Origin: Dehalococcoidia bacterium
GTDB lineage: Bacteria > Chloroflexota > Dehalococcoidia > Lucifugimonadales > UBA3495
DNA: 64,000 nucleotides
Assembly: GCA_965201145.1 (NCBI GenBank)
Contig: CBDAVT010000002.1
Location: forward strand, 2,203,380-2,267,379
Direction: 5' to 3'
Of the stretch, positions 21 to 63,726 are shown piece by piece. Each line of letters begins with the position of its first letter. Position 1 is the stretch's first letter. The notes beneath the pieces are model-generated. The model was given only the letters and a program-made list of their open reading frames with translations. It had not been told where the DNA came from and made no database searches. A program made the position numbers and the translations under genes.

Positions 21-203
21 CAGGGCTATCGCATATGAAAAAATTTCAGGCTCAGAACGGAACTTTCCGATGTTTTGGCGGCGCTTTACTGGGTAATCAA
101 CATCAAAACCAACGGTTTAAGTCTTAAATTACCCAAATTTAGCAGTTAAAAACGGAGATTTACCCGTCAATTGGCCTCTTAAATTCCATATGCGATAGCC
201 CTG
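21..203 (+). mobile_element. 183-bp MITE-like element, copy 1 (variant A)
   Basis: Starts CAGGGCTATCGCATATG and ends with its exact reverse complement (17-bp TIR). Flanked by a direct 10-bp duplication TAGGAAGCCC (11-20 and 204-213). No credible internal ORF. Confidence 0.9.
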
Positions 204-1833: not shown

Positions 1834-2547
1834 ATGCCGTCTTTTACCGACAAGTTGACCGTCAACGGGGAAGAAATGGAGATGTACGCCGCGGTTCCCA
1901 GCGGTTCGGGGCCTTTTCCCGCCGTGGTAATCGCCTTTCACGTCGGCGGAATGGATGAGTTTGACAAGGTTATGGCCGACCGGTTCGCCGAGGAAGGCTA
2001 TGTCGCCGTGGTTCCCGACCTGTTCCACCGCTTCAGCGAAGAGGTTATGGCCGGCCCCCGTCTGGACCGGCTGGGCCACCTCAACGACCCGGACATCATC
2101 GCCGATATGAATGCCGCCGTGGACTTTCTCACTAATAATTCGGCCGTCGACAACGAGCGCATCGGCGTTACCGGGTTCTGCATGGGCGGGCGCATTGCCT
2201 GGCTGATGGCCGCGGTCAATCCCATTTTCAAGGCCACCGTCCCCTTCTACGGCGGCAACATTATGGGCATTTGGGGCGATGCCGAGCAGACGCCCTTTGA
2301 ATTGGCCGACGGCATCAACTGCCCGATGCTGTTCCATTTTGGCGAGATTGACCGCAACCCGTCGCAGGAGGATATGGTCAAGCTTGACGCCGAGTTGACC
2401 CGGCTGGGCAAGGAACATATCTTCCACACCTACCCCGGCGCCGACCATGCCTTTATGGACTGGACGGGAGCGCGCCACAACGAGGAAGGCGCCGCCCTGG
2501 CCTGGCCCAGGACGATCGAGTTCTTTAACCAGTACCTGAAGGGGTAA
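1834..2547 (+). CDS. dienelactone hydrolase family protein
   Basis: 237-aa ORF. Has the alpha/beta-hydrolase nucleophile elbow GFCMGG (Cys nucleophile typical of DLH) and C-terminal GADHAF His motif. GGAGG RBS 8 nt upstream. Confidence 0.8.
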   Translation: MPSFTDKLTVNGEEMEMYAAVPSGSGPFPAVVIAFHVGGMDEFDKVMADRFAEEGYVAVVPDLFHRFSEEVMAGPRLDRLGHLNDPDIIADMNAAVDFLTNNSAVDNERIGVTGFCMGGRIAWLMAAVNPIFKATVPFYGGNIMGIWGDAEQTPFELADGINCPMLFHFGEIDRNPSQEDMVKLDAELTRLGKEHIFHTYPGADHAFMDWTGARHNEEGAALAWPRTIEFFNQYLKG

Positions 2548-2694
2548 GAGCGGGCACCCCGCCAGGGTAGGGAACGTGCCGGCTGGTCTGCCGCTTCAGG
2601 AGCGCCGCTAACGGTCCGCTGGCGAGCCAGCCCTTGCGGAGTGAGGCAATATCGTTGCAACGGAACGTCACAGGATGTTAAAACCGGACTCCTG

Positions 2695-3780
2695 ATGCCG
2701 GCGCTACTGGAAAGAAAGGAAGAGTACCTGCCGATACCGGAAAAGGCTTTGGCCCGTCTCTGGCAGAAGCGGGCGGCCCGGCAGCGGGAGTTTCGCACCG
2801 GCGCCGGACGGCGGGTGCGGGTATTGTATCCGGGCCGGCCCGGCACCGCCGCCGGCCCGGACTTCCGGGACGCGCTGCTGGAAGTGGAAGGACTGGGTCT
2901 GGTAAAAGGGGATGTGGAGCTGCACCTGCGGCAGCAGGATTGGTACGCTCACGGCCACGCTACCGATCCCAACTATAACGGGGTGGTGCTTCACGCCGCC
3001 CTGCAGACCTCGCCCCAGCCAACTAAATTGCACAATGGGCAGCAGGCTCCGGTAATATCCTTGGCTGGGTTGCTGGACGAAAGCGCTGCCGACTTCGACG
3101 CTGCTGCCGAAAGTCCGGGAGCCCCGGGGCCGGCCGGGTCCCTGTGGCGGCTGCTGGCCGACCGGGGCTGGACGCGTCCCGAGGATGCCGCGGGGCTTGG
3201 GCGGTTGCTGGATGCCGCCGGCGATGCCCGCTTCCGGACCAAAGCCGCCAATTTCGCCGCTTTCAATCGGGAGCAGCCGCCGGCCCAGACCTTGTACGAA
3301 GGACTGCTGGAGGCGCTGGGATATTATGCCAACCGCCAGCCTTTCCTGAAACTGGCGCGGCAGGCTCCCTGGCAAGCCCTGTGTGCCGAAGCTGTAACTG
3401 TCCCGCCGGAAAGCCGGAGCGCCGTCATTGAAGGCCGTCTGCTGCACTTGTCCGGGTTGGCCGAAGGGGAAGGGAGCCGACCCCGCCGGGCCGCCGGCTA
3501 CGGGCGACCTCTGCTGGCCGCCGAGTGGAACTGCTTCCGGGTACGGCCGGCCAACCACCCGCGCCAGCGCATCGCCGGCGCCGCCCGACTGCTGGCCCGT
3601 TGCCTGATGGAATCGGCAGGGGCTCAGCCGGTTGAGGATTCTTTGGTCGAAAACCTCCGCCGGGCAGTAGCTGCCGACAGCGCCGCCAAGCTGACCGGCG
3701 CGCTGACCGTAAAGGCGGATAGACCCGGGGCGTGGCCTACATCGGCGCCGCCCGGGCCCGGGACCTGGCGGTCAACGTGA
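2695..3780 (+). CDS. DUF2851 family protein, frameshifted (C-terminal part continues in ORF 3732..4001)
   Basis: Family-typical stretch GPDFRDALLEVEG...GDVELHLRQQDWYAHGH...VVLH. The conserved C-terminus (ARDLAVNVILPFL...LQPNEICREMAEQLL) is in another frame from about 3732. Start chosen at MPALLERK. Confidence 0.6.
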   Translation: MPALLERKEEYLPIPEKALARLWQKRAARQREFRTGAGRRVRVLYPGRPGTAAGPDFRDALLEVEGLGLVKGDVELHLRQQDWYAHGHATDPNYNGVVLHAALQTSPQPTKLHNGQQAPVISLAGLLDESAADFDAAAESPGAPGPAGSLWRLLADRGWTRPEDAAGLGRLLDAAGDARFRTKAANFAAFNREQPPAQTLYEGLLEALGYYANRQPFLKLARQAPWQALCAEAVTVPPESRSAVIEGRLLHLSGLAEGEGSRPRRAAGYGRPLLAAEWNCFRVRPANHPRQRIAGAARLLARCLMESAGAQPVEDSLVENLRRAVAADSAAKLTGALTVKADRPGAWPTSAPPGPGTWRST

Positions 3781-4082
3781 TTCTGCCCTTCCTGGACGCC
3801 CTGGATAGGGTCAATTCTTCGGACACCCCGCAGCCCGACAGCCCCTCCCTTACCCTCTACCGGAAATTTCCCAAGCTGCAACCCAACGAAATCTGTCGGG
3901 AGATGGCCGAGCAATTGCTGGAGGCGGACTGGAGCGGGACCGTAAACTCCGCCCGGCGGCAGCAGGGACTGATTCACCTGCACCGCCAACTGACCGGCTG
4001 AACCCGCTAATTTCCGACCGCTGCCGGGGACGGGTTCTATACCGCCCCCTGACCGGCAATCAGAGTATTCCGGGCCTGGCCG

Positions 4083-5096
4083 CTAAACTTCCACCGGCAG
4101 CACCCACATTGGCCCCGCCCCCAGTTCGTAGGTTTCGAACCGCTCCAGCTCGCCGGTATCGGTAATTCGGAAGGCGGCCAGCTTGCCCGACTCCAGGCCG
4201 GCCGAGTACAGGTAGCGGCCGGTGGGGTCGATGCCAAAGGCTCGGGGCACCGGTTCGGCCGGCGTCTGGCCCAGGGCAGTCAAGCGGCCGGCGTCATCCA
4301 CCGCATAACCGGCGATGCTGTCGTGGCCCCGGTTGGGCGCGTAAAGGTAGCGGCCGTCGGGGGTAATCTGGATTTGAGCGCAACTGTTCCGCCCTTCGAA
4401 CCCTTCCGGCAGGGTGGTGAGGGTCTGGAAGGGAGTCAAGCCGCCGGTGTCCGTATCCAGGTGATAGCCGGTGACGCTGCAACCCTGCTCGTTGGAAACG
4501 TAGATAATATCCTTGCTGGGGTGAAAACAGAAATGCCGGGGCCCGTCCGGGTTAGCCGGGCTGACCCGGGGCGGGTCATTGGGCGTGATCTGCCCCGTGG
4601 CCGGGTCGAAGTGGAACTGAAAGATGGCGTTGGGGCCGTCGCCGGCGGCAATGTGCGGTACGTAGCCGTAGCGGTTGCCGGGGTCGGTCTGGAAGCAGTG
4701 CGCCCCGGTGCCGGTAGCCACCCATTCCACCGGCGGGCCGGTTACGGCGCCGTCAGCGCCGATGGCGTGCACCGCGGCGTGGCCGGCGTTGTAGTAGGCC
4801 GACAGCAGGTAGCGGCCGGTCCGGTCGGTGGCGATGTAGCACGGGTCCGACTCCAGCCCCGCCGTGACAATGAGCTCCAGCTCGCCGCTGTCGGGAATCA
4901 GCCGGTAGCTGGATACCTCCAGGTCGTCCCGCCGGCCCACGTAAACGAACTGCCGGTCAGGACTGGCGGCCATAGGCGCCGGCCGGCCCGGCGCCGCGGT
5001 CTCGCCCAGCAATTCCAGACGGCCGTCGGCCGGGTCCAGGGCGAACCGCAGCGCCTTGCCTTCGCCGGAAATGGAAACATACACGTAAAAAGCCAT
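4083..5096 (-). CDS. lactonase, 7-bladed beta-propeller family (6-phosphogluconolactonase/cycloisomerase-like)
   Basis: 337-aa ORF with repeated blade signatures (FVYVGRR, YLLSAYY, YGYVPHI, IIYVSNE, YLYAPNR, YLYSAGL). Confidence 0.75.
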   Translation of the reverse strand: MAFYVYVSISGEGKALRFALDPADGRLELLGETAAPGRPAPMAASPDRQFVYVGRRDDLEVSSYRLIPDSGELELIVTAGLESDPCYIATDRTGRYLLSAYYNAGHAAVHAIGADGAVTGPPVEWVATGTGAHCFQTDPGNRYGYVPHIAAGDGPNAIFQFHFDPATGQITPNDPPRVSPANPDGPRHFCFHPSKDIIYVSNEQGCSVTGYHLDTDTGGLTPFQTLTTLPEGFEGRNSCAQIQITPDGRYLYAPNRGHDSIAGYAVDDAGRLTALGQTPAEPVPRAFGIDPTGRYLYSAGLESGKLAAFRITDTGELERFETYELGAGPMWVLPVEV

Positions 5097-5338
5097 TGCT
5101 TTACCTCATCTTCCTCAGAATGGTTGTCCGATTGTAAATTAGACGTGATTCTACCACAGCGGTTTTGGAGGGTCGGGTGTTAGTTAAGCGCCGTCTCCCT
5201 CATAATGGCGAAATGCAGTATGCTGAGCGTGTCGGGTTCAGACACAAACTCATTCAGAGAAATCATTGCTCAAAGGCTCCCTTTATTGTCCCCGGGGGCA
5301 GGGAATGTCGGGATTCCATCGAAGAAGAATGTGTCGGA

Positions 5339-6661
5339 CTAAGGGGGGCTGTCCAATTCTACCCGGATTACCCGATAGGTCTTGCCACGAAGGACTACTA
5401 CAATGTCATCTCCAATTTCTTTCCCTTCAATATGACATATTCCCAGAAATGGTATTTCTTCCCACGAGTATCTGCCCCGGTTTTCATATACCCTTGTTAC
5501 ACACGGGTTGTTATTCCGCGTTGTGTGCCACCAAGAACCGTTTTCTTCCCAAGTCAACAGAGCCAGGAATGAACCGTCATTGTAATGCGCCTCCGGTATT
5601 GACGGTGTGGGAGTAGGTAATCTTACATTTCTGCCGGCTTTCAGGAAATTAAACCGAGAGTAAATTTCTTCAATAGCAAGGGCATAACCTACATTTTCCA
5701 AGTGGTCCCACCCGCAGGTATTCATACCGATGATATTACCGTCGGTTGTCATTAACGGCCCGCCGCTGTTTCCCGGATTAAGGGCTGCATCGGTTTTGAT
5801 CCAGTGCACTCCATCTTGGCAAGCGCCGTAAAGAACTTTTGCAACGGAGACTATGCCACTGGTAACAGTTCGGCTGCCTCCCCCTTGGGGATAGCCCATC
5901 GCTATTACCCGGCTCCCTTTAGCGATGTTGGTGGATACAGTAATTCCGGCCCCCCATTGCTTCAGATAGCTTATCCCGTCCTTATATCCAGTTCCAGCCC
6001 AGTCGAAGTCATTGGGCCCGACGTCGATTAAAGCTACATCTGCGACTTCATCTACACCCAGAACTTGGGCCCGCGAAATAGTAATGTCTCGGTACCAGCG
6101 CAATTCTACCCATTGGTCATTTCCTACAACGTGAGCGTTTGTGACCAGATACCATTCGGTACGGTTAGACGGATCCTGGATAAAGAACCCGGTCCCGGAG
6201 CCACCTGAGGACAAAATTAGCACTATATAAGGGTTCAACCTATCGCTCCAGTCAGCAATACTAGGGGTCGGGGTTGGAATGCGAGTTGGTCTGACGGTCG
6301 GCACTGGGGTAGCGGTTGGCTGGGGGGTGGACGTGGGAATCGGAGTAGGAATCGGCTGCGGAGAAGCCGTCGGCGCCGGGGTTGCCGTCGGTTGAGGCGT
6401 GGCAGTGGGAATCGGGGTAGGAACTGGCTGCGGCGACGCCGTTGGCAGTGGAGTAGGGATAATTTGTGGCGTCGCCGTAGCCACTTTTGGAGCTGGGGTA
6501 GTGGTTGGTTGGGGCGTCAACGTAGGCATTGAATCCACAACCGCCTGAGCCCTCTGGTCAATCAAGCGGTTCAGCTCCTCCGTGGAAGGGCCGCAGGCCA
6601 GTACCGCAAAGATTAACGCAACAGCCCCAACACGCCCGAAATTTAACCAATCGCCAAACAT
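5339..6661 (-). CDS. secreted trypsin-like serine protease (S1 family) with Pro/Thr-rich linker
   Basis: 440-aa ORF. Has a lipoprotein-like signal (VLACG), repeated TPQPTxTPAPT linker and the serine motif GNSGGPL. The catalytic and C-terminal part is visibly AT-richer than its neighbours. Confidence 0.8.
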   Translation of the reverse strand: MFGDWLNFGRVGAVALIFAVLACGPSTEELNRLIDQRAQAVVDSMPTLTPQPTTTPAPKVATATPQIIPTPLPTASPQPVPTPIPTATPQPTATPAPTASPQPIPTPIPTSTPQPTATPVPTVRPTRIPTPTPSIADWSDRLNPYIVLILSSGGSGTGFFIQDPSNRTEWYLVTNAHVVGNDQWVELRWYRDITISRAQVLGVDEVADVALIDVGPNDFDWAGTGYKDGISYLKQWGAGITVSTNIAKGSRVIAMGYPQGGGSRTVTSGIVSVAKVLYGACQDGVHWIKTDAALNPGNSGGPLMTTDGNIIGMNTCGWDHLENVGYALAIEEIYSRFNFLKAGRNVRLPTPTPSIPEAHYNDGSFLALLTWEENGSWWHTTRNNNPCVTRVYENRGRYSWEEIPFLGICHIEGKEIGDDIVVVLRGKTYRVIRVELDSPP

Positions 6662-8752: not shown

Positions 8753-9427
8753 TTACGGTAATTCCGGACGGGTCTGGAGTTTTTCGAACAGGTAGGCGGG
8801 CGCGGATTTGGTTGGCTTGAACCGGGCCCGGCTGGGCGGTCGGCCGGCGTCGCCAGCCACCATTTCCGCAGTGAACCGGGTCTCCCGGTCAGTCTTGAAA
8901 TAGGCGGCCAGTTGCGCTTCAGTCGTTTCCAGAAGGAGGCCGCTGCCGGCAAAGGCGCCAATCAGCCGATAATCCGGGTCGGTCCAGGCCCGGCGGGCAT
9001 CGTAATGTTCGTCATTGACCAGCAGCCGGCCGCCGGGACGCAGGAATCTCTTGCCATACCGGGAAACGAACCCGGCGTTAAGGGATATAAGCAGGTCGAA
9101 GGCTGCTTCGGTCGCGGCGGCAAAGGCGCGGTAGTCTTCCTGATAACAGCGAATTTGGGCGGCTTCCGGGTAAGCTTTATGGTGGTTTACGTATTCCAGC
9201 AGGGCCGGGTCGGCCATGGCATTGGCAAAGCCGGCCAGGGAGTCAACGTAGGTCACTTCGGAGAAGAACAGGGACGGAGTAAGGTGCAGCCATCTGCCGA
9301 GGTAGAGGGTCCGGGCTGCGCCGAAGTTGGCCCGTAGCTGCTGGAAAACCGGCCCCAGGTCGCAGTTGCAGTCTGGCCGGTTTCGGTAATGTTCCAGATA
9401 GATGTTCAGGGGATTCCGTAAAGACAT
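8753..9427 (-). CDS. hypothetical protein (possible SAM-methyltransferase-like fold)
   Basis: ORF 8753..9502. Start moved to MSLRNPLNIY. Only weak motif support (RFLRPGGRLLVND). Confidence 0.35.
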   Translation of the reverse strand: MSLRNPLNIYLEHYRNRPDCNCDLGPVFQQLRANFGAARTLYLGRWLHLTPSLFFSEVTYVDSLAGFANAMADPALLEYVNHHKAYPEAAQIRCYQEDYRAFAAATEAAFDLLISLNAGFVSRYGKRFLRPGGRLLVNDEHYDARRAWTDPDYRLIGAFAGSGLLLETTEAQLAAYFKTDRETRFTAEMVAGDAGRPPSRARFKPTKSAPAYLFEKLQTRPELP

Positions 9428-9524
9428 TGGCGCGGCTTCGTCCTTACCCCCTCTCCTTCTGACCGGAGAGGGGGTTGTTCCGGTCTCCCGGTGCGGTGGC
9501 AAGCCCGGCGGCGGGCTTGATAGT

Positions 9525-9941: not shown

Positions 9942-10172
9942 TCCAATTATGCGCTGGGCGGCCCAGGCCCGGGGAAAACGGCTGTCCTCTGGGCCGTTGC
10001 GGGTCGCCCCAAATATATTACAAGGGGACGGAAGCGGTCAAACTGGCCGGTGACCGACGGGATTTGATTGCCGGGAAGGGCCGTGCTAGACTGCGGGCAG
10101 AGGCAAAGATGAGGAAGTAGAATAAATGATGGTTAATGCTGGTTCGTACAACGGTGGTTATGGTAAATAATG

Positions 10173-11949
10173 CTAATTTCCTGAATCCCGGTCGCCTTGC
10201 TCGGAGACGTGTCGAAATATTTGCTCATGGGCATACTCTTGAGCCTCGAACAAATCAACCAAATCTCTAATACTATTAACGTACAATCTCTTGTTATCGG
10301 CATTGTTAATCCTTAACTCTTCCAGTGTCAGCTTATTCCGCTTAATTCCGTTGCAAGTACGGTGGAGTAATGCCAGATTATAGAGTTCATCATTTCCTTG
10401 CATCCCTTCATTTGCTTTCCTGGCCCGGATGTGGTCAACTTCCAGCAGGGTATCATCCAGAGTTCCGTTGGGCCGGTAGGGTTTGTAGCCGCAACCCCAA
10501 CAGACCGGGCCAAATCGGTCCATCAGTAGCTTCTTGGCTTCCTCTTTGGGTATGCGCCCGGACCATGTAGAGGATTGTGATGGCAGTTTCTGCCCTTTCT
10601 TACGTTGTGAGATGTTGTAGAAAGGAGCGGGATCTATATCAGTACGCTTGGGCAATTGATCTGGGCCAATAGTATATGAAGTTGACTGTTGCAGTTCGGT
10701 TTGATGTTCTCCTAACGCTTTGTGTGTGCTGTTGGTCGTGTCAGAAAGGGCAAAACCATTTAAGTAAAACCTCCGTTTGAGCATAGTCCACGCTCTATAT
10801 GCCATGTCGCAAGCCAACCATCTACGGTTTAGTCTTTCAGCTGCGATGGCAGTTGTAGCACACCCGGCAAATATGTCCAAAACAACGTCGCCAGGATTAC
10901 TAGAAACTCGTATAATACGCTCATAGAGGTCTAATGGCTTTTGCGTGGCGTACCCGGTTTCCTCCAGCCTCCTTTTAACCAGTTGGTAGGCATATAGCTG
11001 TTTAATGTCGCTCCAAACTGTAGATAGTGGAACACCTTTGGATTCATCTAAATATTGAGTTTCTGTATTACCGTTAGGTCGTTTCCTTGTACGGAAGCGG
11101 CGGCCATCACCGTCTTTGTAGATGAAACGTTCACTGACGTACTTGTCTGAGTATGGGAGATAGATAGGATTGCAGGGCTATCGCATATGAAAAAATTTCA
11201 GGCTCAGAACGGAACTTTCCGATGTTTTGGCGGCGCTTTACTGGGTAATCAACATCAAAACCAACGGTTTAAGTCTTAAATTACCCAAATTTAGCAGTTA
11301 AAAACGGAGATTTACCCGTCAATTGGCCTCTTAAAATCCATATGCGATAGCCCTGGATAGGATTGTAAGTATGTTTACCGCCATTCCTAGCGTAGAATAA
11401 AAGCGTATCATGCGCTTTGACCTGTTTTGCTCCCCCTGCTCTTCCTCCTGACGGCGTACCATAACTCCACACGATTTCGTTCACCATATTGTTCGCTCCG
11501 AACACGGCATCTAATAACATACGCAAATAGCTGTTCGCATGGCTGTTACAGTGAACATATATACTACCTGTATCCTTTAGTATGCGTCTGCACTCGATTA
11601 ATCGGACTGCCATAAAAGCAATGTATGCCGCTTCGTTATCAGTCGCGCACGCTTCGACAGCTTGGATTACAGCATGGATGGCAGGATAATCATCTTGTAT
11701 TCGCATCTTCCATGTCGGATGCACGTCATCGTCCCAGTTCCAAACGTCCTTTACTCGTGTCTCTCCAATACCTTCGTTATGAGCGACACGATGCTCACGT
11801 GCTAAAGCCTTTTCTTCTTGTAGCTCAGCAGGTGTTATGGGGGGGTTAGGCTTTCTTTTGAACGTTTCATTAGCAGCAAATGGTGGGTCTATGGCAATAA
11901 GGTCAACGCACTCGTTGTTAAGGGACCGAAGGAACGTTAAGTTATCCAT
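10173..11949 (-). pseudogene. DNA methyltransferase (N4/N6, DPPF motif) fused to a C-terminal HNH nuclease domain, interrupted by a MITE
   Basis: N-terminal part has IAIDPPF (motif IV). After the MITE the same frame continues (YLPYSDKYVSERF...VLDIFAGCATT, motif I). The C-terminus has HNH-like EVDHIRARK...LALLHRTCNGIKRNK. Removing 11173-11355 plus one TSD restores one 527-aa ORF. Confidence 0.85.
11173..11355 (+). mobile_element. 183-bp MITE-like element, copy 2 (variant A)
   Basis: Same TIRs. 10-bp TSD GATAGGATTG (11163-11172 and 11356-11365). Lies inside the methyltransferase coding sequence. Confidence 0.9.
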
Positions 11950-12241
11950 TATCGCTAGGGTGCGGTTAGCTACGTTTAAGTTTCCATAACCACCGTTGTG
12001 CGAACCAAAAGCGCCCCCGGGTGGTGGGAGTTTTCGGGGTTATTGCATTGCTGGCTTTGGGCCGGGGCGTCAGCGCAGCTCGCAAGCATCCGCCGGGGGA
12101 AGGGGAGTCGCTCAATAAGATGTAACTCCCGTACACTTTCAATTCCCCCGGCGGACTGTAGTTTCGGCTAAGCAGCGGCGGTGGAACCGGAGACGCCACA
12201 GCTTCACGATTCAAGCTGAACCCATAACCCTGGGCCTGCCG

Positions 12242-37461: not shown

Positions 37462-37908
37462 TCAAATCGGCGTGAAGAGCGTTTCCGAGGATATCTTCTG
37501 CTTTAGGACCCGGTTTATTTGACTGCGCTCTACGTTTGCATCCTCTTGTAAGCCAAGACAATGGATAATGCCATTGACATCGGCGCTAAGGCGAGCGCCT
37601 AGCGCAATTTTCAGGAGGCCGTCGCTTTGTTCGTTTACCTGATAAGAGTGAAAATGCACCGGGTCAGCCAATACTGCCGGGGTCTTTAAGTGCGAGAAAT
37701 CAAACACTCCACTCATATAGTCGAGTAATACATCCTGGATTACGAGTACAAGTTTCTTGTTCAGGTGTTCGAAGGTCTGACTTTTGTGGTGCATTTGCAC
37801 CAGTATTGTCTTCGCAGTCATTTTCCAGTTCATATCCTCGACTATCCGCGCCCAATCCTGGTATCTTCTGGTAGTGGCCTGGCCGAACAGTTCAAGTATT
37901 CGGTTCAT
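37462..37908 (-). CDS. putative type II restriction endonuclease partner (uncharacterised, possibly truncated)
   Basis: The ATG at 37908 overlaps the methyltransferase stop in ATGA. AT-rich like the methyltransferase gene. No nuclease motif recognised. A further ORF-like stretch follows in another frame downstream (about 37300-37460). Confidence 0.35.
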   Translation of the reverse strand: MNRILELFGQATTRRYQDWARIVEDMNWKMTAKTILVQMHHKSQTFEHLNKKLVLVIQDVLLDYMSGVFDFSHLKTPAVLADPVHFHSYQVNEQSDGLLKIALGARLSADVNGIIHCLGLQEDANVERSQINRVLKQKISSETLFTPI

Positions 37909-39041
37909 ACCGCCAATCCACAACGTTCCAGGGACATATCGAGATACTCTCGCGAAATGTCAATGCCAACCGATTTACGGTCGAGCTGATTCGCAACGTA
38001 CAGGGTAGTTCCAGTACCTGCAAAGGGGTCTAAGACAACTCCTCCCAGAGGGCAAGTAGCCAATATTGGTATCAGACAGAGATCAACCGGATACGGGGCG
38101 AAATGCAGTTTCCGGTCTTGGGTATCTTCGGGAATTATGTCCCACACATCGGCCGGCTTTGCTCCTTTGGGATGGTATTGCAGAAAGTAGAACCCTTTAT
38201 CTTTTAGCTCCTTGGCGCGTCCTGACAACTTGCTGCTGTCTGAATGGGTAGTCCGCTGCTGGCCGCGTATAATCATTCTAAAGTCGGCCAACTGACCTTC
38301 GGCTACCGCAGTAAGCATTTTGTCGAGCCCTCGGAAAGCAGCGTCCTTTTCGCTGGCGCTAAGCGCTGTAGAAAGCTCAATCTGACGACGGTATCTCACC
38401 CCTGAAACACCGGTGGCTGAAACTACAGCGCCATTTACAACTTTGCTCTTTTGCGGATTTGCTCTGATTGCATCGACATCGTAATAATACTTTGGCTGCT
38501 TCACAAAGTGAAATATATTCTCGTGGACGTTGCCCAGTCGGTCTTTGGTTGTATCCCTCCCTCCCTTTACTTTGTTCCAAATCACGCTGTTCCTGAGTAT
38601 CCATCCCTGGTTATCGGTCAATTCGAAGGCGACACGCCACGGGATGCCCATCAACTGCTTGGAATGGTATGAATCGCCTAGGTTCAGCCAGAATGACCCT
38701 TTTGGCTTCAATATTCGTTTCAATTCAATAAAGACCGCTGCCAGGTTGCTTACATAGTCGTTATAGTCCGGCTCCAGCCCGATGCCGCCATCGGAATATT
38801 CGCGCTTGTTCCAGTAAGGCGGCGAGGTTACAGCGCAATCCACGGATTCATTCGGTAAATGCGCCAGCACTTCGGAGGTGTTTCCCAGAAGCGTCAACGG
38901 GAGAGTAGAGGGGCCTTGCAGATATTCCACAAACGCTTCGGCATAGGCGTCAGTTACTACCCTTGGCGCACAGTCCTTTGGACCTTGCGCTGTAGGGTGA
39001 AATGACATCTGAAAACCGCAGCCATCGGGTTTCATCGTCAA
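37905..39041 (-). CDS. DNA methyltransferase, beta class (SPPY motif; N4-C or N6-A)
   Basis: 378-aa ORF. Motif IV DCAVTSPPYW precedes motif I VLDPFAGTGTT. GAGGAG RBS. AT-richer than its flanks (28/60 G+C at 38401-38460). Confidence 0.85.
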   Translation of the reverse strand: MTMKPDGCGFQMSFHPTAQGPKDCAPRVVTDAYAEAFVEYLQGPSTLPLTLLGNTSEVLAHLPNESVDCAVTSPPYWNKREYSDGGIGLEPDYNDYVSNLAAVFIELKRILKPKGSFWLNLGDSYHSKQLMGIPWRVAFELTDNQGWILRNSVIWNKVKGGRDTTKDRLGNVHENIFHFVKQPKYYYDVDAIRANPQKSKVVNGAVVSATGVSGVRYRRQIELSTALSASEKDAAFRGLDKMLTAVAEGQLADFRMIIRGQQRTTHSDSSKLSGRAKELKDKGFYFLQYHPKGAKPADVWDIIPEDTQDRKLHFAPYPVDLCLIPILATCPLGGVVLDPFAGTGTTLYVANQLDRKSVGIDISREYLDMSLERCGLAV

Positions 39042-41453: not shown

Positions 41454-41636
41454 CAGGGCTATCGCATATGGATTTTAAGAGGCCAATTGACGGGTAAATC
41501 TCAGTTTTTAACTGCTAAATTTGGGTAATTTAAGACTTAAACCGTTGGTTTTGATGTTGATTACCCAGTAAAGCGCCGCCAAAACATCGGAAAGTTCCGT
41601 TTTGATCCTGAAAATTTTTCATATGCGATAGCCCTG
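41454..41636 (-). mobile_element. 183-bp MITE-like element, copy 3 (variant B, inverted)
   Basis: Same TIRs. 10-bp TSD GGGAAGGGGT (41444-41453 and 41637-41646). Lies about 220 nt upstream of the SBP start. Confidence 0.9.
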
Positions 41637-48801: not shown

Positions 48802-48984
48802 CAGGGCTATCGCATATGAAAAATTTTCAGGATCAAAACGGAACTTTCCGATGTTTTGGCGGCGCTTTACTGGGTAATCAACATCAAAACCAACGGTTTA
48901 AGTCTTAAATTACCCAAATTTAGCAGTTAAAAACTGAGATTTACCCGTCAATTGGCCTCTTAAAATCCATATGCGATAGCCCTG
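48802..48984 (+). mobile_element. 183-bp MITE-like element, copy 4 (variant B)
   Basis: Same TIRs. 10-bp TSD GGCGGGGTGG (48792-48801 and 48985-48994). Lies in a divergent intergenic region. Confidence 0.9.
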
Positions 48985-59968: not shown

Positions 59969-60481
59969 CTAGTCCAAAGTAAGCACCAGGGTCAGCAGGG
60001 CGCTAACCGTTGCAATCACCATCGCCGCCGAGCCGCCAACAATGGCATAAAAGAGCCGGTCGATTCGGGAATTAACACTCTGCTGCATGGCATCAATCCG
60101 GGCGGACACCAAATCAATCCGAGTGTCCATACTTTGCTGCAGGGCATCAATCCGGGCGTCCATACTCTGCTGCAGGGAGATTATCAGGGCATTTGTCGCC
60201 CGCTGGTCCTCCCGCAGCTCGGACACTGCCGTCTCCACCCCCGTCAGCCGGGCATTCGTTTCCCGCTGGTCCTCCCGCAGCTCGGACACTGCCGTCTCCA
60301 CTCCCGTCAGCCGGGCATTCGTTTCCCGCTGGTTGGCCTGCATCTCCCCGCGCAGCTCCACCAGGCCCGTCTCTACCCCCGTTAGCCGGGAATTGGTTTC
60401 CCGCAAATCGTCCCGCAGGTCTGCAACCGAGTGCTCTACCGCCGTCATCCGTTCCGACAAGTCATCCGTAGTTGTTACCAT
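59969..60481 (-). CDS. tail-anchored coiled-coil protein, tandem paralog 1
   Basis: Start at MVTTTDDLSERMTAVE (AGGAGA RBS). Modular 11/21/25-aa repeats (RLTGVETAVSELREDQRETNA). C-terminal TM LFYAIVGGSAAMVIATVSALLTLVLTLD. Confidence 0.7.
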   Translation of the reverse strand: MVTTTDDLSERMTAVEHSVADLRDDLRETNSRLTGVETGLVELRGEMQANQRETNARLTGVETAVSELREDQRETNARLTGVETAVSELREDQRATNALIISLQQSMDARIDALQQSMDTRIDLVSARIDAMQQSVNSRIDRLFYAIVGGSAAMVIATVSALLTLVLTLD

Positions 60482-60512
60482 GGTTTTATCTCCTGATTGA
60501 GCTATGCCAACC

Positions 60513-60540
60513 ACTATACCGGATACCGGCCCATTGTCAA
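60513..60540 (-). promoter_or_regulatory. sigma70-type promoter of paralog 1
   Basis: Minus-strand TTGACA-N16-TATAGT, about 30 nt upstream of the start codon. Conserved upstream of all four paralogs. Confidence 0.6.
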
Positions 60541-60570
60541 TCCACTGGGCCAAGGGGAGCGAAACAAAAT

Positions 60571-60608
60571 TCCCCTCTCCTCGCGGGAGAGGGGCCGGGG
60601 GTGAGGGC
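60571..60608. repeat. REP-like palindrome
   Basis: TCCCCTCTCCTCGCGGGAGAGGGGCCGGGGGTGAGGGC. Confidence 0.7.
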
Positions 60609-60628
60609 TTCCTGGGAAGGGGTAAGGG

Positions 60629-61048
60629 CTAGTCCAAAGTAAGCACCAGGGTCGGCAGGGCGCTAACCGTCGCAATCACCATAGCCGCCGAGCCGCCAAC
60701 TATGGCATAAAAGAGCCGGTCAATGCGGGAATTAACACTCTGTTGCAAGGTTTCAATCCGGGCGGCCATCTCGCTCTGCAAGGAATCGATCCGGGAGGTC
60801 ATCTCGCTTTGTAAGGTATCAATCCGGGAGGTCACGCCATCGATCCGGGCGTCCACACTTTGTTGCAGGGAGATTATCAGGGTATTCGTCGCCCGCTGGT
60901 CCTCCCGCAGCTCGGACACTGCCGTCTCCACCGCCGTCAACCGGGCATTGGTTTCCCGATGGTTGGCCTGCATCTCCCCCCGCACCTCCAACACCGAGTG
61001 TTCCACCGCCGTCATCCGTTCCGACAAGTCATCCGTAGTTGTTACCAT
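60629..61048 (-). CDS. tail-anchored coiled-coil protein, tandem paralog 2
   Basis: Same N-terminus, RBS (GGAGGAAAGGAAACT) and C-terminal TM as the others. Different set of internal modules. Confidence 0.7.
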   Translation of the reverse strand: MVTTTDDLSERMTAVEHSVLEVRGEMQANHRETNARLTAVETAVSELREDQRATNTLIISLQQSVDARIDGVTSRIDTLQSEMTSRIDSLQSEMAARIETLQQSVNSRIDRLFYAIVGGSAAMVIATVSALPTLVLTLD

Positions 61049-61079
61049 AGTTTCCTTTCCTCCGTAAGTTCTGCCAACC

Positions 61080-61107
61080 ACTATACCGGATACCGGCCCA
61101 TTGTCAA
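61080..61107 (-). promoter_or_regulatory. sigma70-type promoter of paralog 2
   Basis: Minus-strand TTGACA-N16-TATAGT. The MITE copy 5 boundary is 19 bp upstream of the -35. Confidence 0.6.
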
Positions 61108-61126
61108 TCCACCGCAGTACCCGGCC

Positions 61127-61309
61127 CAGGGCTATCGCATATGGATTTTAAGAGGCCAATTGACGGTTAAATCTCCGTTTTTAACTGCTAAATTTGGGTA
61201 ATTTAAGACTTAAACCGTTGGTTTTGATGTTGATTACCCAGTAAAGCGCCGCCAAAACATCGGAAAGTTCCGTTCTGAGCCTGAAATTTTTTCATATGCG
61301 ATAGCCCTG
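61127..61309 (-). mobile_element. 183-bp MITE-like element, copy 5 (variant A, inverted)
   Basis: Same TIRs. TSD (A)GTACCCGGCC (61116/61117-61126 and 61310/61311-61320). Confidence 0.9.
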
Positions 61310-61317
61310 AGTACCCG

Positions 61318-61433
61318 GCCCTCACCCCTAGCCCCTCTCCCACGAGGCGAAGGGGAACTTTGGCGGATAAGCCGGCTACTGCCCCAAACATAAACTCCCC
61401 TTTCCCCCAGGGAGAGGGGCCGGGGGTGAGGGC
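61318..61433. repeat. compound REP-like doublet
   Basis: CCCTCACCCCTAGCCCCTCTCCC...spacer...CCCCTTTCCCCCAGGGAGAGGGGCCGGGGGTGAGGGC. The same doublet occurs at 62185-62297 and 54215-54310. Confidence 0.7.
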
Positions 61434-61477
61434 TTTCGGGACGGGGCCGAGCTTTCGGGAGGAGAAGGGGGTAGGAG

Positions 61478-61915
61478 CTAGTCCAAAGTAAGAACCAGGG
61501 TCAGCAGGGCGCTAACCGTCGCAATCACCATAGCCGCCGAGCCGCCAACAATGGCATAAAAGAGCCGGTCAATGCGGGAATTAACACTCTGTTGCAGGGA
61601 GATTATCAGACCATTCGTCGCCCTCTGGTCCTCCCGCAGCTCGGACACCGCCGTCTCCACCGCCGTCAACCGGGCGTTGGTTTCCTGCAAATCACCCCGT
61701 ACCTCCAATACCGAGTGTTCCACCGCCGTCATCCGGGCATTGGTTTCCCTCTGGTTGGCCTGCATCTCCCCGCGCAACTCCACCAAGCCCGTCTCCACCG
61801 CCGTCATCCGAGCGTTGGTTTCCCGATGGTTGGCCTGCATCTCCCCGCGCAACTCCACCAGGCCCGTCTCCACCGCCGTCATCCGTTCCGACAAATCATC
61901 CGTAGTTGTTACCAT
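61478..61915 (-). CDS. tail-anchored coiled-coil protein, tandem paralog 3
   Basis: Same termini. Contains two TGLVELRGEMQAN(H/Q)RETNARMTAVE modules. Confidence 0.7.
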   Translation of the reverse strand: MVTTTDDLSERMTAVETGLVELRGEMQANHRETNARMTAVETGLVELRGEMQANQRETNARMTAVEHSVLEVRGDLQETNARLTAVETAVSELREDQRATNGLIISLQQSVNSRIDRLFYAIVGGSAAMVIATVSALLTLVLTLD

Positions 61916-61946
61916 AGCTTCCTTTCCTCCGTAAGCTCTGCCAACC

Positions 61947-61974
61947 ACTATACCTGATACCGGTCCATTGTCAA
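61947..61974 (-). promoter_or_regulatory. sigma70-type promoter of paralog 3
   Basis: Minus-strand TTGACA-N16-TATAGT. The MITE copy 6 boundary is 19 bp upstream of the -35. Confidence 0.6.
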
Positions 61975-61993
61975 TCCACCGCAGTACCCGACC

Positions 61994-62176
61994 CAGGGCT
62001 ATCGCATATGAAAAAATTTCAGGCTCAGAACGGAACTTTCCGATGTTTTGGCGGCGCTTTACTGGGTAATCAACATCAAAACCAACGGTTTAAGTCTTAA
62101 ATTACCCAAATTTAGCAGTTAAAAACGGAGATTTACCCGTCAATTGGCCTCTTAAATTCCATATGCGATAGCCCTG
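61994..62176 (+). mobile_element. 183-bp MITE-like element, copy 6 (variant A)
   Basis: Same TIRs. 10-bp TSD GTACCCGACC (61984-61993 and 62177-62186). Confidence 0.9.
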
Positions 62177-62184
62177 GTACCCGA

Positions 62185-62297
62185 CCCTCACCCCTAACCC
62201 CTCTCCCGCGAGGCGAGGGGGACTTTGGCGGATAAGCCGGCTACTGCCCCAAACACAAACTCCCCTCTCCCTGGGGGAGAGGGGCCGGGGGTGAGGG
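62185..62297. repeat. compound REP-like doublet
   Basis: CCCTCACCCCTAACCCCTCTCCCGCGAGGCGAGGGGG...CCCCTCTCCCTGGGGGAGAGGGGCCGGGGGTGAGGG. Confidence 0.7.
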
Positions 62298-62340
62298 TTT
62301 TCCGGACGGGGCCGGGTTTTCGGGAGGAAGGGGGTAAGCG

Positions 62341-62790
62341 CTAGTCCAAAGTAAGAACCAGGGTCAGCAGGGCGCTAACCGTCGCAATCACCATAGCCGC
62401 CGAGCCGCCAACGATGGCATAGAAGAGCCGGCCAATTCGGGAATTAACACTCTGTTGTAAGGTATCAATCCGGGCGGTCATCTCGCTTTGTAAGGTATCA
62501 ATCCGGGAGGTCACGCCATCGATCCGGGCGTCCACACTTTGTTGCAGGGAGATTATCAGGGCATTCGTCGCCCGCTGGTCCTCCCGCAGTTCGGACACTG
62601 CCGTCTCCACCGCCGTCATCCGGGCATTGGTTTCCCGATGGTTGGCCTGCATCTCCCCGCGCAACTCCACCAGGCCCGCCTCCACCGCCGTCAACAGAGC
62701 ATTGGTTTCCCGCAAATCACTCCGCAGCTCCACCAGGCCCGTTTCCACCGCCGTCATCCGTTCCGACAAATCATCCGTAGTAGTTACCAT
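62341..62790 (-). CDS. tail-anchored coiled-coil protein, tandem paralog 4
   Basis: Same termini. Its module order differs again. Confidence 0.7.
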   Translation of the reverse strand: MVTTTDDLSERMTAVETGLVELRSDLRETNALLTAVEAGLVELRGEMQANHRETNARMTAVETAVSELREDQRATNALIISLQQSVDARIDGVTSRIDTLQSEMTARIDTLQQSVNSRIGRLFYAIVGGSAAMVIATVSALLTLVLTLD

Positions 62791-62821
62791 AGTTTCCTTT
62801 CCTCCGTAAGTTCTGCCAACC

Positions 62822-62849
62822 ACTATACCTGATAGCGGCCCATTGTCAA
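62822..62849 (-). promoter_or_regulatory. sigma70-type promoter of paralog 4 (unoccupied MITE target next to it)
   Basis: Minus-strand TTGACA-N16-TATAGT. The single-copy GTACCCGGCC at 62859-62868 is the empty-site equivalent of the copy 5/6 targets. Confidence 0.6.
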
Positions 62850-62865
62850 TCCACCGGGGTACCCG

Positions 62866-62938
62866 GCCCTCACCCCTCTCCCGCGAGGCGAGGGGTGTTT
62901 CTTTTTCGTCACCCCTCCCTCAGGAAGAGGGCAGGGGA
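62866..62938. repeat. REP-like palindromes
   Basis: GCCCTCACCCCTCTCCCGCGAGGCGAGGGG ... CACCCCTCCCTCAGGAAGAGGGCAGGGGAG. Confidence 0.6.
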
Positions 62939-63033
62939 GTTTCGTTCCATCTGGTGTATAATATATCTTCGGACGAAGCGGCCCGCCCCGACACTTGCAG
63001 CCGCAACGATTCAATAAATGGAGGTATGATTCA

Positions 63034-63726
63034 GTGAAGTTACTGGTAATCAGCGGTGGACGACACCCCTACGAGGAATCTACTCCTATCCTTAACGACT
63101 TTCTTACCGCCGCCGGCCACGACGTGACGGTTACCGAGGATGCCTCGGTGCTGGCTAATTCGGCGGAGATGAACGCCTTTGACGCGCTGGTGTTTAACAC
63201 TCGCCGGGAAAACATCCCCGACTTTGGGGACTGGGCTTTAGCCCCGGCGGAACGGCAGGGTATGGCCGACTATATCCGTTCCGGCAAAGGATTCGTCTGC
63301 CTCCATATTTCCACCTGCCTGTCCAATACCTGGCCCGAGTACCATGAAATCACCGGCGGCGGCTGGATTACCGGAACCAGTTACCACCCGCCCTACGGCG
63401 AGTTTACGGTCAACGTGAGCCAGGCCGGGCATCCCGGCGTCCAGGGCGTATCCGACTTTGCCACCAATGACGAGCTTTATATGGGCCTGGCCTACGGGGA
63501 AGGCAACGATATTTTCCTCACCGGAGATTCGGAGGACGGTACCTGGCCCTGGGGCCCGAATCGCTCCCCCACCTTTATGGCCGGCGGCACCTATCCCCTG
63601 GCCTGGACCCGCGCCTATGGCGAAGGCAAGGTCTTCGTCCTGCTGCTGGGCCACGACGGACGCAGCTTCGAAACACCCGAGTTTCAGCAAATAGTCCTCA
63701 ACGGCGTAGATTGGGCCACCGCCTGA
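63034..63726 (+). CDS. ThuA-domain (trehalose-utilisation-like) protein
   Basis: GTG start 9 nt after GGAGG. KLLVISGGRHPYE ... GFVCLH ... WTRAYGEGKVFVLLLGHD is ThuA-like. Confidence 0.65.
   Translation: MKLLVISGGRHPYEESTPILNDFLTAAGHDVTVTEDASVLANSAEMNAFDALVFNTRRENIPDFGDWALAPAERQGMADYIRSGKGFVCLHISTCLSNTWPEYHEITGGGWITGTSYHPPYGEFTVNVSQAGHPGVQGVSDFATNDELYMGLAYGEGNDIFLTGDSEDGTWPWGPNRSPTFMAGGTYPLAWTRAYGEGKVFVLLLGHDGRSFETPEFQQIVLNGVDWATA

Follow-up and report, generated by a model that had tools for sequence, protein, structure and literature searches.

Introduction

Nuclease and methyltransferase are joined in one chain in the Type IIG/IIL restriction-modification (RM) enzymes, of which MmeI is an example (PMC2731913); these enzymes are encoded by solitary genes, carry a swappable recognition module and diversify rapidly. 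Here we describe a gene of comparable plan, encoding a methyltransferase fused to an HNH domain and interrupted by a miniature inverted-repeat transposable element (MITE), from a Dehalococcoidia bacterium (GCA_965201145.1, contig CBDAVT010000002.1, positions 2,203,380-2,267,379). This whole stretch of 64,000 nucleotides (nt) is referred to as the window, and the gene region occupies its positions 10173-11949. Genes of the family to which it belongs are likewise usually solitary and appear to exchange a recognition module, and one swap of that single module would change both specificities. The parts differ. Type IIG/IIL enzymes have an N-terminal PD-(D/E)XK nuclease and a gamma-class methyltransferase, whereas the present gene specifies a beta-class methyltransferase, with the recognition domain inside it, and a C-terminal HNH domain. 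The MmeI-like combination of PD-(D/E)XK nuclease, gamma-class methyltransferase and C-terminal recognition domain was not found, and the resemblance is one of analogy only. In the broad sense of Type IIC, both domains are present in one chain and no separate R gene accompanies them; restriction activity would be ascribed by analogy.

The beta-class methyltransferases M.MboIIA, CcrM, M.RsrI, M.BceJIV and Type III Mod share with the window family the motif order of IV (DPPF), recognition domain and I (FxGxG), to which the window family adds a conserved linker of ~100 amino acids (aa) and a C-terminal HNH domain. The full architecture was found in no solved structure, phage record or plasmid record searched, and a literature search for a characterised methyltransferase-HNH fusion returned nothing specific.

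Two known phenomena involving mobile elements bear on the locus. Mobile insertion cassettes (MICs) consist of insertion sequence (IS)-type inverted repeats around passenger genes and contain no transposase. Inactivation of RM genes by ISs or MITEs is the other, and the event in the window is the same in kind.

Results

A MITE insertion splits the methyltransferase-HNH gene

The MITE lies within the gene between two perfect copies of a 10-bp target-site duplication (Table 1). Its terminal inverted repeats (CAGGGCTATCGCATATG) are complementary at 17 of 17 nt, its GC content is 41% compared with 60% for the window, and it has no coding capacity of its own, being overlapped by read-through open reading frames (ORFs) alone. 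On the minus strand, the N-terminal frame of the gene (...GGKHTYNPI) reaches position 11356, runs for 24 codons into the MITE and stops (ORF 11281-11949), leaving a stub of 222 aa with 198 native and 24 MITE-encoded residues. Excision of positions 11163-11355 (193 bp, 1 mod 3) produced 1584 nt containing one 527-aa ORF that ends at position 10173, and a tblastn search of the restored protein against the window recovered the two halves in frames -2 and -3, each at 100% identity. The MITE interrupts the gene at codon 198/199, where the recognition domain has its N-terminal edge, and in the part that follows no start codon precedes Leu293. The insertion thus shifts the frame and leaves the half with motif I and the HNH domain without a start codon.

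Seven metagenome contigs, assembled independently from other sequencing runs, matched the locus at 99.97-100% identity; one of them (L002) spans the N-terminal junction and ends within the MITE, indicating that the interruption is not an assembly artefact. No MITE-free or cassette-free allele was detected, every contig with the neighbouring gene carrying the same allele.

The restored protein combines a beta-class methyltransferase with an HNH domain

Both Pfam domains scored above their gathering cutoffs in the restored protein, N6_N4_Mtase (PF01555) over residues 15-319 with 129.4 bits (cutoff 26.7) and HNH (PF01844) over residues 436-474 with 25.7 bits (cutoff 21.4). The N-terminal two-thirds were classified as a beta-class amino-methyltransferase by NCBIfam, PADLOC, PDB sequence search and Foldseek with an AlphaFold model (predicted local distance difference test score 74.6), and the sequence and fold matches comprised M.MboIIA, CcrM, M.BceJIV, M.RsrI and Type III Mod. 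Motif IV (DPPF, residues 21-24) is followed by the recognition domain and then by motif I (FAGCATT). The DPPF motif together with the nearest relatives, M.MboIIA, CcrM and RsrI, suggests N6-adenine as the base specificity.

In the C-terminal part, residues C419, C422, D441, H442, N460, H465, C468 and N469 were invariant across 28 sequences, and the restored protein keeps all family-invariant catalytic and zinc residues. The HNH part showed weak resemblance to HNH domains of the IscB and PtuB types. No PDB sequence match was obtained with the linker and HNH part alone, and no known restriction-enzyme model matched the restored protein.

The MITE belongs to a resident multi-copy family

The 17-mer of the terminal inverted repeat occurs 12 times in the window, forming six elements, compared with 0.16 occurrences expected, and the pattern is therefore not due to chance. 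All six copies are 183 bp long, each has a 10-bp target duplication, both orientations are represented, and pairwise differences amount to 0-5 nt. The element is a true multi-copy MITE, being short and non-coding with inverted-repeat ends and target duplications of fixed length. The copy in the methyltransferase gene differs by 1 nt from three of the others; this near-identity, the perfect target duplication and the retention of all family-invariant residues make the insertion look recent. A first-pass annotation of the locus, made from the sequence alone, had described a recent insertion by a resident MITE and had given the element's coordinates, its length, the 10-bp duplication and the restoration of the 527-aa ORF by a 193-bp excision, all of which agrees with these observations.

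Ends of ISAs1-family elements begin with CAGGG, and their target duplications measure 8-10 bp. The right inverted repeat of ISArsp11, a member of this family, is CAGGGCTAATGCAAAGTCG, and its direct repeat is 10 bp long (PMC6305408, Table 3). The ends of the window MITE begin with CAGGGCT and have the pattern CAGGGCTA..GCA.A in common with it. Since end pattern and duplication length both match ISArsp11, the MITE is provisionally assigned to the ISAs1 type. Like ISAs1-family MITEs, it is short, AT-rich, non-coding and present in multiple copies, but its ends cap many unrelated interiors across soil metagenomes. Among the matches listed, the same 17-nt end was found in more than 120 metagenome contigs of the Joint Genome Institute (JGI); elements with these ends were 141-261 bp long with unrelated interiors, and most of seven sampled were flanked by 9-10-bp duplications.

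One longer element, of 1586 bp (L199, 559-2144), has the 17-nt ends of the window MITE, extended to ~25 nt, and an IS110-family transposase inside. It was rejected as parent IS or mobiliser of the MITE because its transposase is unlike those that make 10-bp duplications; IS110-family transposases are not known to produce them. The element probably arose when an IS110 element inserted into a MITE.

Two further observations concern the insertion sites. Copies c5 and c6 occupy the equivalent position, in opposite orientations, of two units in an array of ~865-bp tandem repeats (window 60300-63200). The motif GCCCTCACCCC lies directly beside the targets of three of the six MITE copies and points to a preferred target; the insertion site in the methyltransferase gene is without the motif.

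The start region carries a second lesion

In an alignment of 17 homologous 5' ends, 16 started 13 codons upstream of the window ORF with the pattern M-x-x-LNVxNRTLAI-MDN, and most of these starts follow a ribosome-binding site of the GGAG type. Only the closest homologue (L009/P0001) differed, with tandem repeats in place of the extension. In the window, the corresponding ancestral ATG (11985-11987), 39 nt upstream, is out of frame by a 1-nt deletion (ATGGAAACTTAA; ATG GAA ACT TAA), and the 12 codons after it are intact and perfectly conserved. The start region reads ATGGAAAC where ATGGGAAAC was expected, and one added G restores MGNLNVANRTLAIMDN, identical to the homologue at L035. The same sequence was present in independent contigs, indicating that the deletion is not a sequencing error.

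No in-frame ATG, GTG or TTG was found between the preceding stop codon and Met14, and Met14 has no obvious Shine-Dalgarno sequence or other ribosome-binding site ahead. The gene could start only at this internal Met14, as the closest homologue P0001 does. The 1-nt deletion is thus a second lesion, and the first-pass statement that the gene carried no lesion other than the MITE does not hold.

At the place of the closest homologue (L001 5810-5990, the same as L009; OZ219748.1), tandem units of 7-8 nt (GCGGAAA, GCAACCG, CCAACCAG) abut the codons NRTLAI-M. The repeats replace both the N-terminal extension and the ribosome-binding site of P0001, and slipped-strand phase variation may be possible there.

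The gene is an acquired insert within an outer inverted repeat

The gene has a GC content of 46%, compared with 60% for the window, and lies in a low-GC tract at ~10,000-12,100. The insert, ~1.7-2.0 kb with a single gene, is located between genes for an HbpS-like protein and a glyoxalase. A syntenic relative (L088), whose flanking proteins are ~81% identical, has in common with the window the gene order molybdopterin oxidoreductase, HbpS-like, glyoxalase, DUF1330 and aldehyde dehydrogenase; there, 173 nt without a methyltransferase gene separate the HbpS-like gene from the glyoxalase gene, and the intergenic DNA was too diverged for breakpoint mapping. The closest homologue, P0001, is found in an unrelated gene neighbourhood of a related genome. 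The low GC content, the absence from L088 and the different neighbourhood of the closest homologue indicate that the gene was horizontally acquired.

The whole methyltransferase-HNH ORF is closely enclosed by an outer inverted repeat of 27 nt, whose arms agree at 25 of 27 positions. Its score is 21, and none of 300 mismatched flank pairs scored above 15. Searches of the window, of JGI metagenomes and of the first 89 fetched loci detected no further copy of this repeat. The sequences on its two sides, GGCGCTTT and GCATTAAC, do not repeat each other and form no target duplication, and the low-GC tract extends ~45 nt past the 3' arm. At L024 (OZ243924.1, 3879-5739), a family gene lies between the arms of a different inverted repeat of 23-24 nt (GGCAATGATATACTTGACTAACG), flanked by an 8-bp direct repeat (TTCAATTA), which is a classical signature of transposition, of the one-gene MIC type. 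Inverted repeats around one non-transposase gene, as in MICs, are thus present at both loci; the window cassette differs from MICs in having no target duplication and no partner IS or second copy with the same ends among the DNA searched.

A unique repeat bracketing the gene was seen at only two of ~66 testable family loci, namely the window and L024. The outer repeat was rejected as a family-wide feature, two further high-scoring pairs being of another nature, that at L035 a palindromic repeat of the repetitive extragenic palindromic type and that at L077 two IS3 copies. An occasional packaging of family genes as MICs would fit these repeats, and is put forward only tentatively. The first-pass annotation had presented the locus as one mobile element disabling another; the gene is indeed an acquired insert, and nothing shows that it moves by itself, leaving that part of the claim unproven.

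At L088, three extra genes are located between the oxidoreductase gene and the HbpS-like gene.

Methyltransferase-HNH fusions form a large family in Chloroflexota

Neither restored sequence was present in a collection of 15 billion proteins. The restored protein had more than 4,300 database matches, the top one being 76% identical over 99% of the query. The best 120 of these matches were 509-668 aa long; most covered 95-100% of the query in a single alignment, and the remainder aligned in two pieces around a variable central domain. When the linker and HNH module was searched against 1.84 billion cluster representatives, only 125 matches were obtained, and in the long ones the module formed the C-terminus of proteins of 510-640 aa. 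The methyltransferase-plus-HNH architecture was confirmed by Pfam even at ~45% identity. Because the module is almost always C-terminal in N6_N4 methyltransferases, the fusion is the normal state of the family. The first-pass reading of a methyltransferase and an HNH domain in one broken gene is therefore upheld, the junction being spanned by homologues that are single polypeptides and neither a lack of such homologues nor a normal separation of the halves being found.

A scan of species representatives, with one genome per species, gave 79 family loci, all of them in assemblies of Dehalococcoidia or other Chloroflexi and at most four per chromosome record. Some loci are syntenic between genomes. 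Family genes are usually solitary, and across the 79 loci no neighbour was conserved, be it a nuclease, a controller or another candidate partner. No family relative was detected in IMG/VR, and no full-length match was obtained among 50,697 phage records (INPHARED) or 72,556 plasmid records (PLSDB); a phage or plasmid origin was rejected on these grounds. The architecture had been called uncommon, which is true of the phage and plasmid collections and not of Dehalococcoidia, where the family is large and often has several copies per genome.

Among 50 full-length members, median pairwise identity was 75% in the N-terminal catalytic part, 22% in the recognition domain and 71% in the part with motif I, linker and HNH domain. 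The central recognition domain fell into 13 clusters and measured 103-171 aa, and the window gene has its domain type in common with L009-L012. Two members from one genome (L028 and L076) had frameworks 96-97% identical and recognition domains 32% identical. These comparisons indicate that the catalytic framework stays almost unchanged in the family, with one recognition domain exchanged for another. The GC content of family genes is usually below that of their flanks (58.6% vs 62.4%), and some copies stand in tandem. Disruption recurs in the family and affects about 8 of the 79 copies: six carry frameshifts, and two have an IS3-family (rve) insertion of ~1.3 kb in or next to the recognition domain (L077, 2395-3728; L081, 2333-3632). 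These two insertions parallel that of the MITE in the window. The variable recognition domain on a fixed framework, the low GC content, the tandem or multiple copies and the frequent pseudogenes fit a fast-evolving conflict or selfish gene family, not a housekeeping methyltransferase.

On one chromosome (OZ251547.1), three of the four family loci (L026, L027 and L031, ~2100-5740) each represent the same 3.6-kb repeat unit. The unit pairs the methyltransferase-HNH gene with a divergently transcribed ORF of 530 aa that ends in a low-complexity tail, matches no Pfam model and is common to one sub-lineage of the family.

Table 1. Positions of the interrupted gene, its repeats and the MITE copies in the window.
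Feature	Positions	Strand or orientation	Details
Gene, N-terminal part	11356-11949	minus	198 codons; motif IV DPPF at 11878-11889
Gene, C-terminal part	10173-11162	minus	329 codons and stop; rest of recognition domain, motif I, linker, HNH
Motif I FAGCATT	10851-10871	minus	residues 296-302
HNH domain	10335-10451	minus	CWGCG...EVDHIRAR...NLALLHRTCNGIKRN
MITE in the gene	11173-11355		183 bp, 41% GC; terminal inverted repeats 11173-11189 and 11339-11355; putative ISAs1-type ends CAGGGCTA..GCA.A
Target-site duplication, copy 1	11356-11365	minus	CAATCCTATC; 10 bp
Target-site duplication, copy 2	11163-11172	minus	CAATCCTATC; 10 bp, perfect
Ancestral N-terminal extension, remnant	11950-11988	minus	codons Y-G-NLNVANRTLAI; from the 5'-end alignment of 17 homologues
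Outer inverted repeat, 5' arm	11981-12007	minus	TGGTTCGCACAACGGTGGTTATGGAAA; overlaps ancestral start codon
Outer inverted repeat, 3' arm	10140-10166		starts 6 nt past stop codon
MITE copy c1	21-203		target duplication TAGGAAGCCC
MITE copy c3	41454-41636	opposite orientation	target duplication GGGAAGGGGT
MITE copy c4	48802-48984		target duplication GGCGGGGTGG
MITE copy c5	61127-61309	opposite orientation	target duplication AGTACCCGGCC/GTACCCGGCC
MITE copy c6	61994-62176		target duplication GTACCCGACC

Discussion

The locus is best explained, and as a whole very probably so, as an acquired gene for an RM-type enzyme that was knocked out by an ISAs1-type MITE and separately lost its start codon to a deletion. 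In this account, a Dehalococcoidia genome acquired the low-GC one-gene insert between the HbpS-like and glyoxalase genes, and the gene encodes a beta-class, probably N6-adenine, methyltransferase followed by the conserved linker and, at the C-terminus, a predicted HNH nuclease that has a zinc site. Intact proteins of the family are predicted to be self-contained RM-type enzymes, in which one recognition domain may direct both host-protecting methylation and HNH cleavage or nicking of unmethylated sites. The ISAs1-type MITE would have been mobilised in trans by a DDE transposase making 10-bp staggered cuts. The gene is dead in this genome, where the MITE inserted at codon 198/199 and, separately, the 1-nt deletion put the ancestral start codon out of frame. 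Loss of the gene would be tolerated because both activities go at once, as in other combined RM polypeptides.

Several points weigh against parts of this account. The known single-chain RM enzymes of Type IIG/IIL combine a gamma-class methyltransferase with a PD-(D/E)XK nuclease. PADLOC returned methyltransferase models only, plus a weak PtuB-like HNH match, and it is from the architecture that cleavage by the HNH domain, and its guidance by the recognition domain, are predicted. No cognate ISAs1 transposase was detected in the window or in the fetched loci, and the only long element found with the ends of the MITE is the one at L199. Finally, since the start codon is damaged too, the MITE may have struck a gene that was already silent; any order of the two lesions is an inferred one.

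This last possibility would make the MITE a neutral arrival in a pseudogene silenced by the 1-nt start deletion, the start having possibly been lost as the ORF and the inverted-repeat arm came together. It accords with an ancestral ATG that is out of frame though the next 12 codons are perfectly conserved, with the lack of an in-frame ATG, GTG or TTG before Met14 and of an obvious Shine-Dalgarno sequence, and with the position of the 5' arm where homologues have the ribosome-binding site region. Against this stand the closest homologue P0001, which likewise begins at the corresponding internal Met and is intact in all other respects, suggesting that the short form may function, and the 1584 nt of the restored gene, in which no more stops or frameshifts were found and the invariant residues are kept, which argues against long prior neutral decay. 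A neutral landing is possible but, in our judgement, unlikely. The acquisition itself could also be read differently, with the methyltransferase-HNH gene as passenger of a MIC moved in trans or, less likely, as a self-moving element of the homing type, either of which would make the event a true case of one mobile element striking another. The unique and tight 27-nt repeat with its score beyond all mismatched pairs, the different repeat and 8-bp duplication at L024, the low-GC insert missing from the syntenic relative and the presence of related genes in multiple copies at non-syntenic sites all point in that direction. However, the window cassette has no target duplication, its repeat has no other copy in the DNA searched, and a unique bracketing repeat is confined to two of the testable loci, the pairs at L035 and L077 being palindromic or IS-derived; moreover, many copies occupy syntenic positions, suggesting vertical inheritance, and the low-GC tract runs on beyond the 3' arm. 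Movement as a cassette is accordingly regarded as doubtful.

A different question is what the intact protein does. It may be a methyltransferase of the orphan or regulatory kind, with an HNH-like domain that binds DNA or nicks it for repair or recombination, as the solitary gene without a conserved partner, the many copies at conserved chromosomal positions and the lack of a matching restriction-enzyme model would allow. The catalytic D-H, N and H/N residues of the HNH domain and its Cys ligands are nevertheless invariant in the family, and the hypervariable recognition domain on a fixed framework, the low GC content, the tandem or multiple copies and the pseudogenes are traits of conflict systems; we consider a function outside restriction rather improbable. 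That the two halves are normally separate genes, or that the interruption arose in assembly, is extremely improbable: no supporting point was found, thousands of homologues are single polypeptides, the HNH module is C-terminal on methyltransferases even in distant representatives, and the junction is common to independent assemblies.

The event is an ordinary, textbook knockout of an acquired RM-like gene by an active MITE family. Its chief use is as a dated record of MITE activity, and of turnover among RM genes, in a Dehalococcoidia lineage that is uncultured. Of greater interest is the gene family, which comprises thousands of members with a near-fixed scaffold, a freely differing recognition domain and a built-in predicted HNH nuclease. 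Should the recognition domain also guide the nuclease, the members would be compact enzymes of ~530-610 aa, each encoded by a single gene and together covering many specificities, which would be of interest to restriction-enzyme discovery and would help to explain methylome diversity and gene-flow barriers in soil, marine and sponge Chloroflexota. A broader picture, in which specificity is re-programmed by swaps of the internal domain, the genes spread within genomes and from one genome to another as minimal one-gene cassettes, some between transposon-type inverted repeats (the window copy and L024), and mobile elements of the host (the MITE in the window, IS3 elements at L077 and L081) repeatedly knock them out, is conceivable and offered with reserve.

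Other features of the window

Rfam and tRNA scans of the 64-kb window returned nothing, and a promoter and terminator scan around the methyltransferase-HNH gene gave no excess over the shuffled expectation. An ORF of 249 aa that matches no Pfam model (8753-9502, minus strand) separates the glyoxalase gene from the DUF1330 gene and is absent at L088. A second low-GC island (37462-39041, minus strand; 49-51% GC) lies between ABC-transporter genes and contains two overlapping ORFs that form a candidate Type II RM pair, one for a 378-aa beta-class methyltransferase with an SPPY motif and the other of 153 aa.

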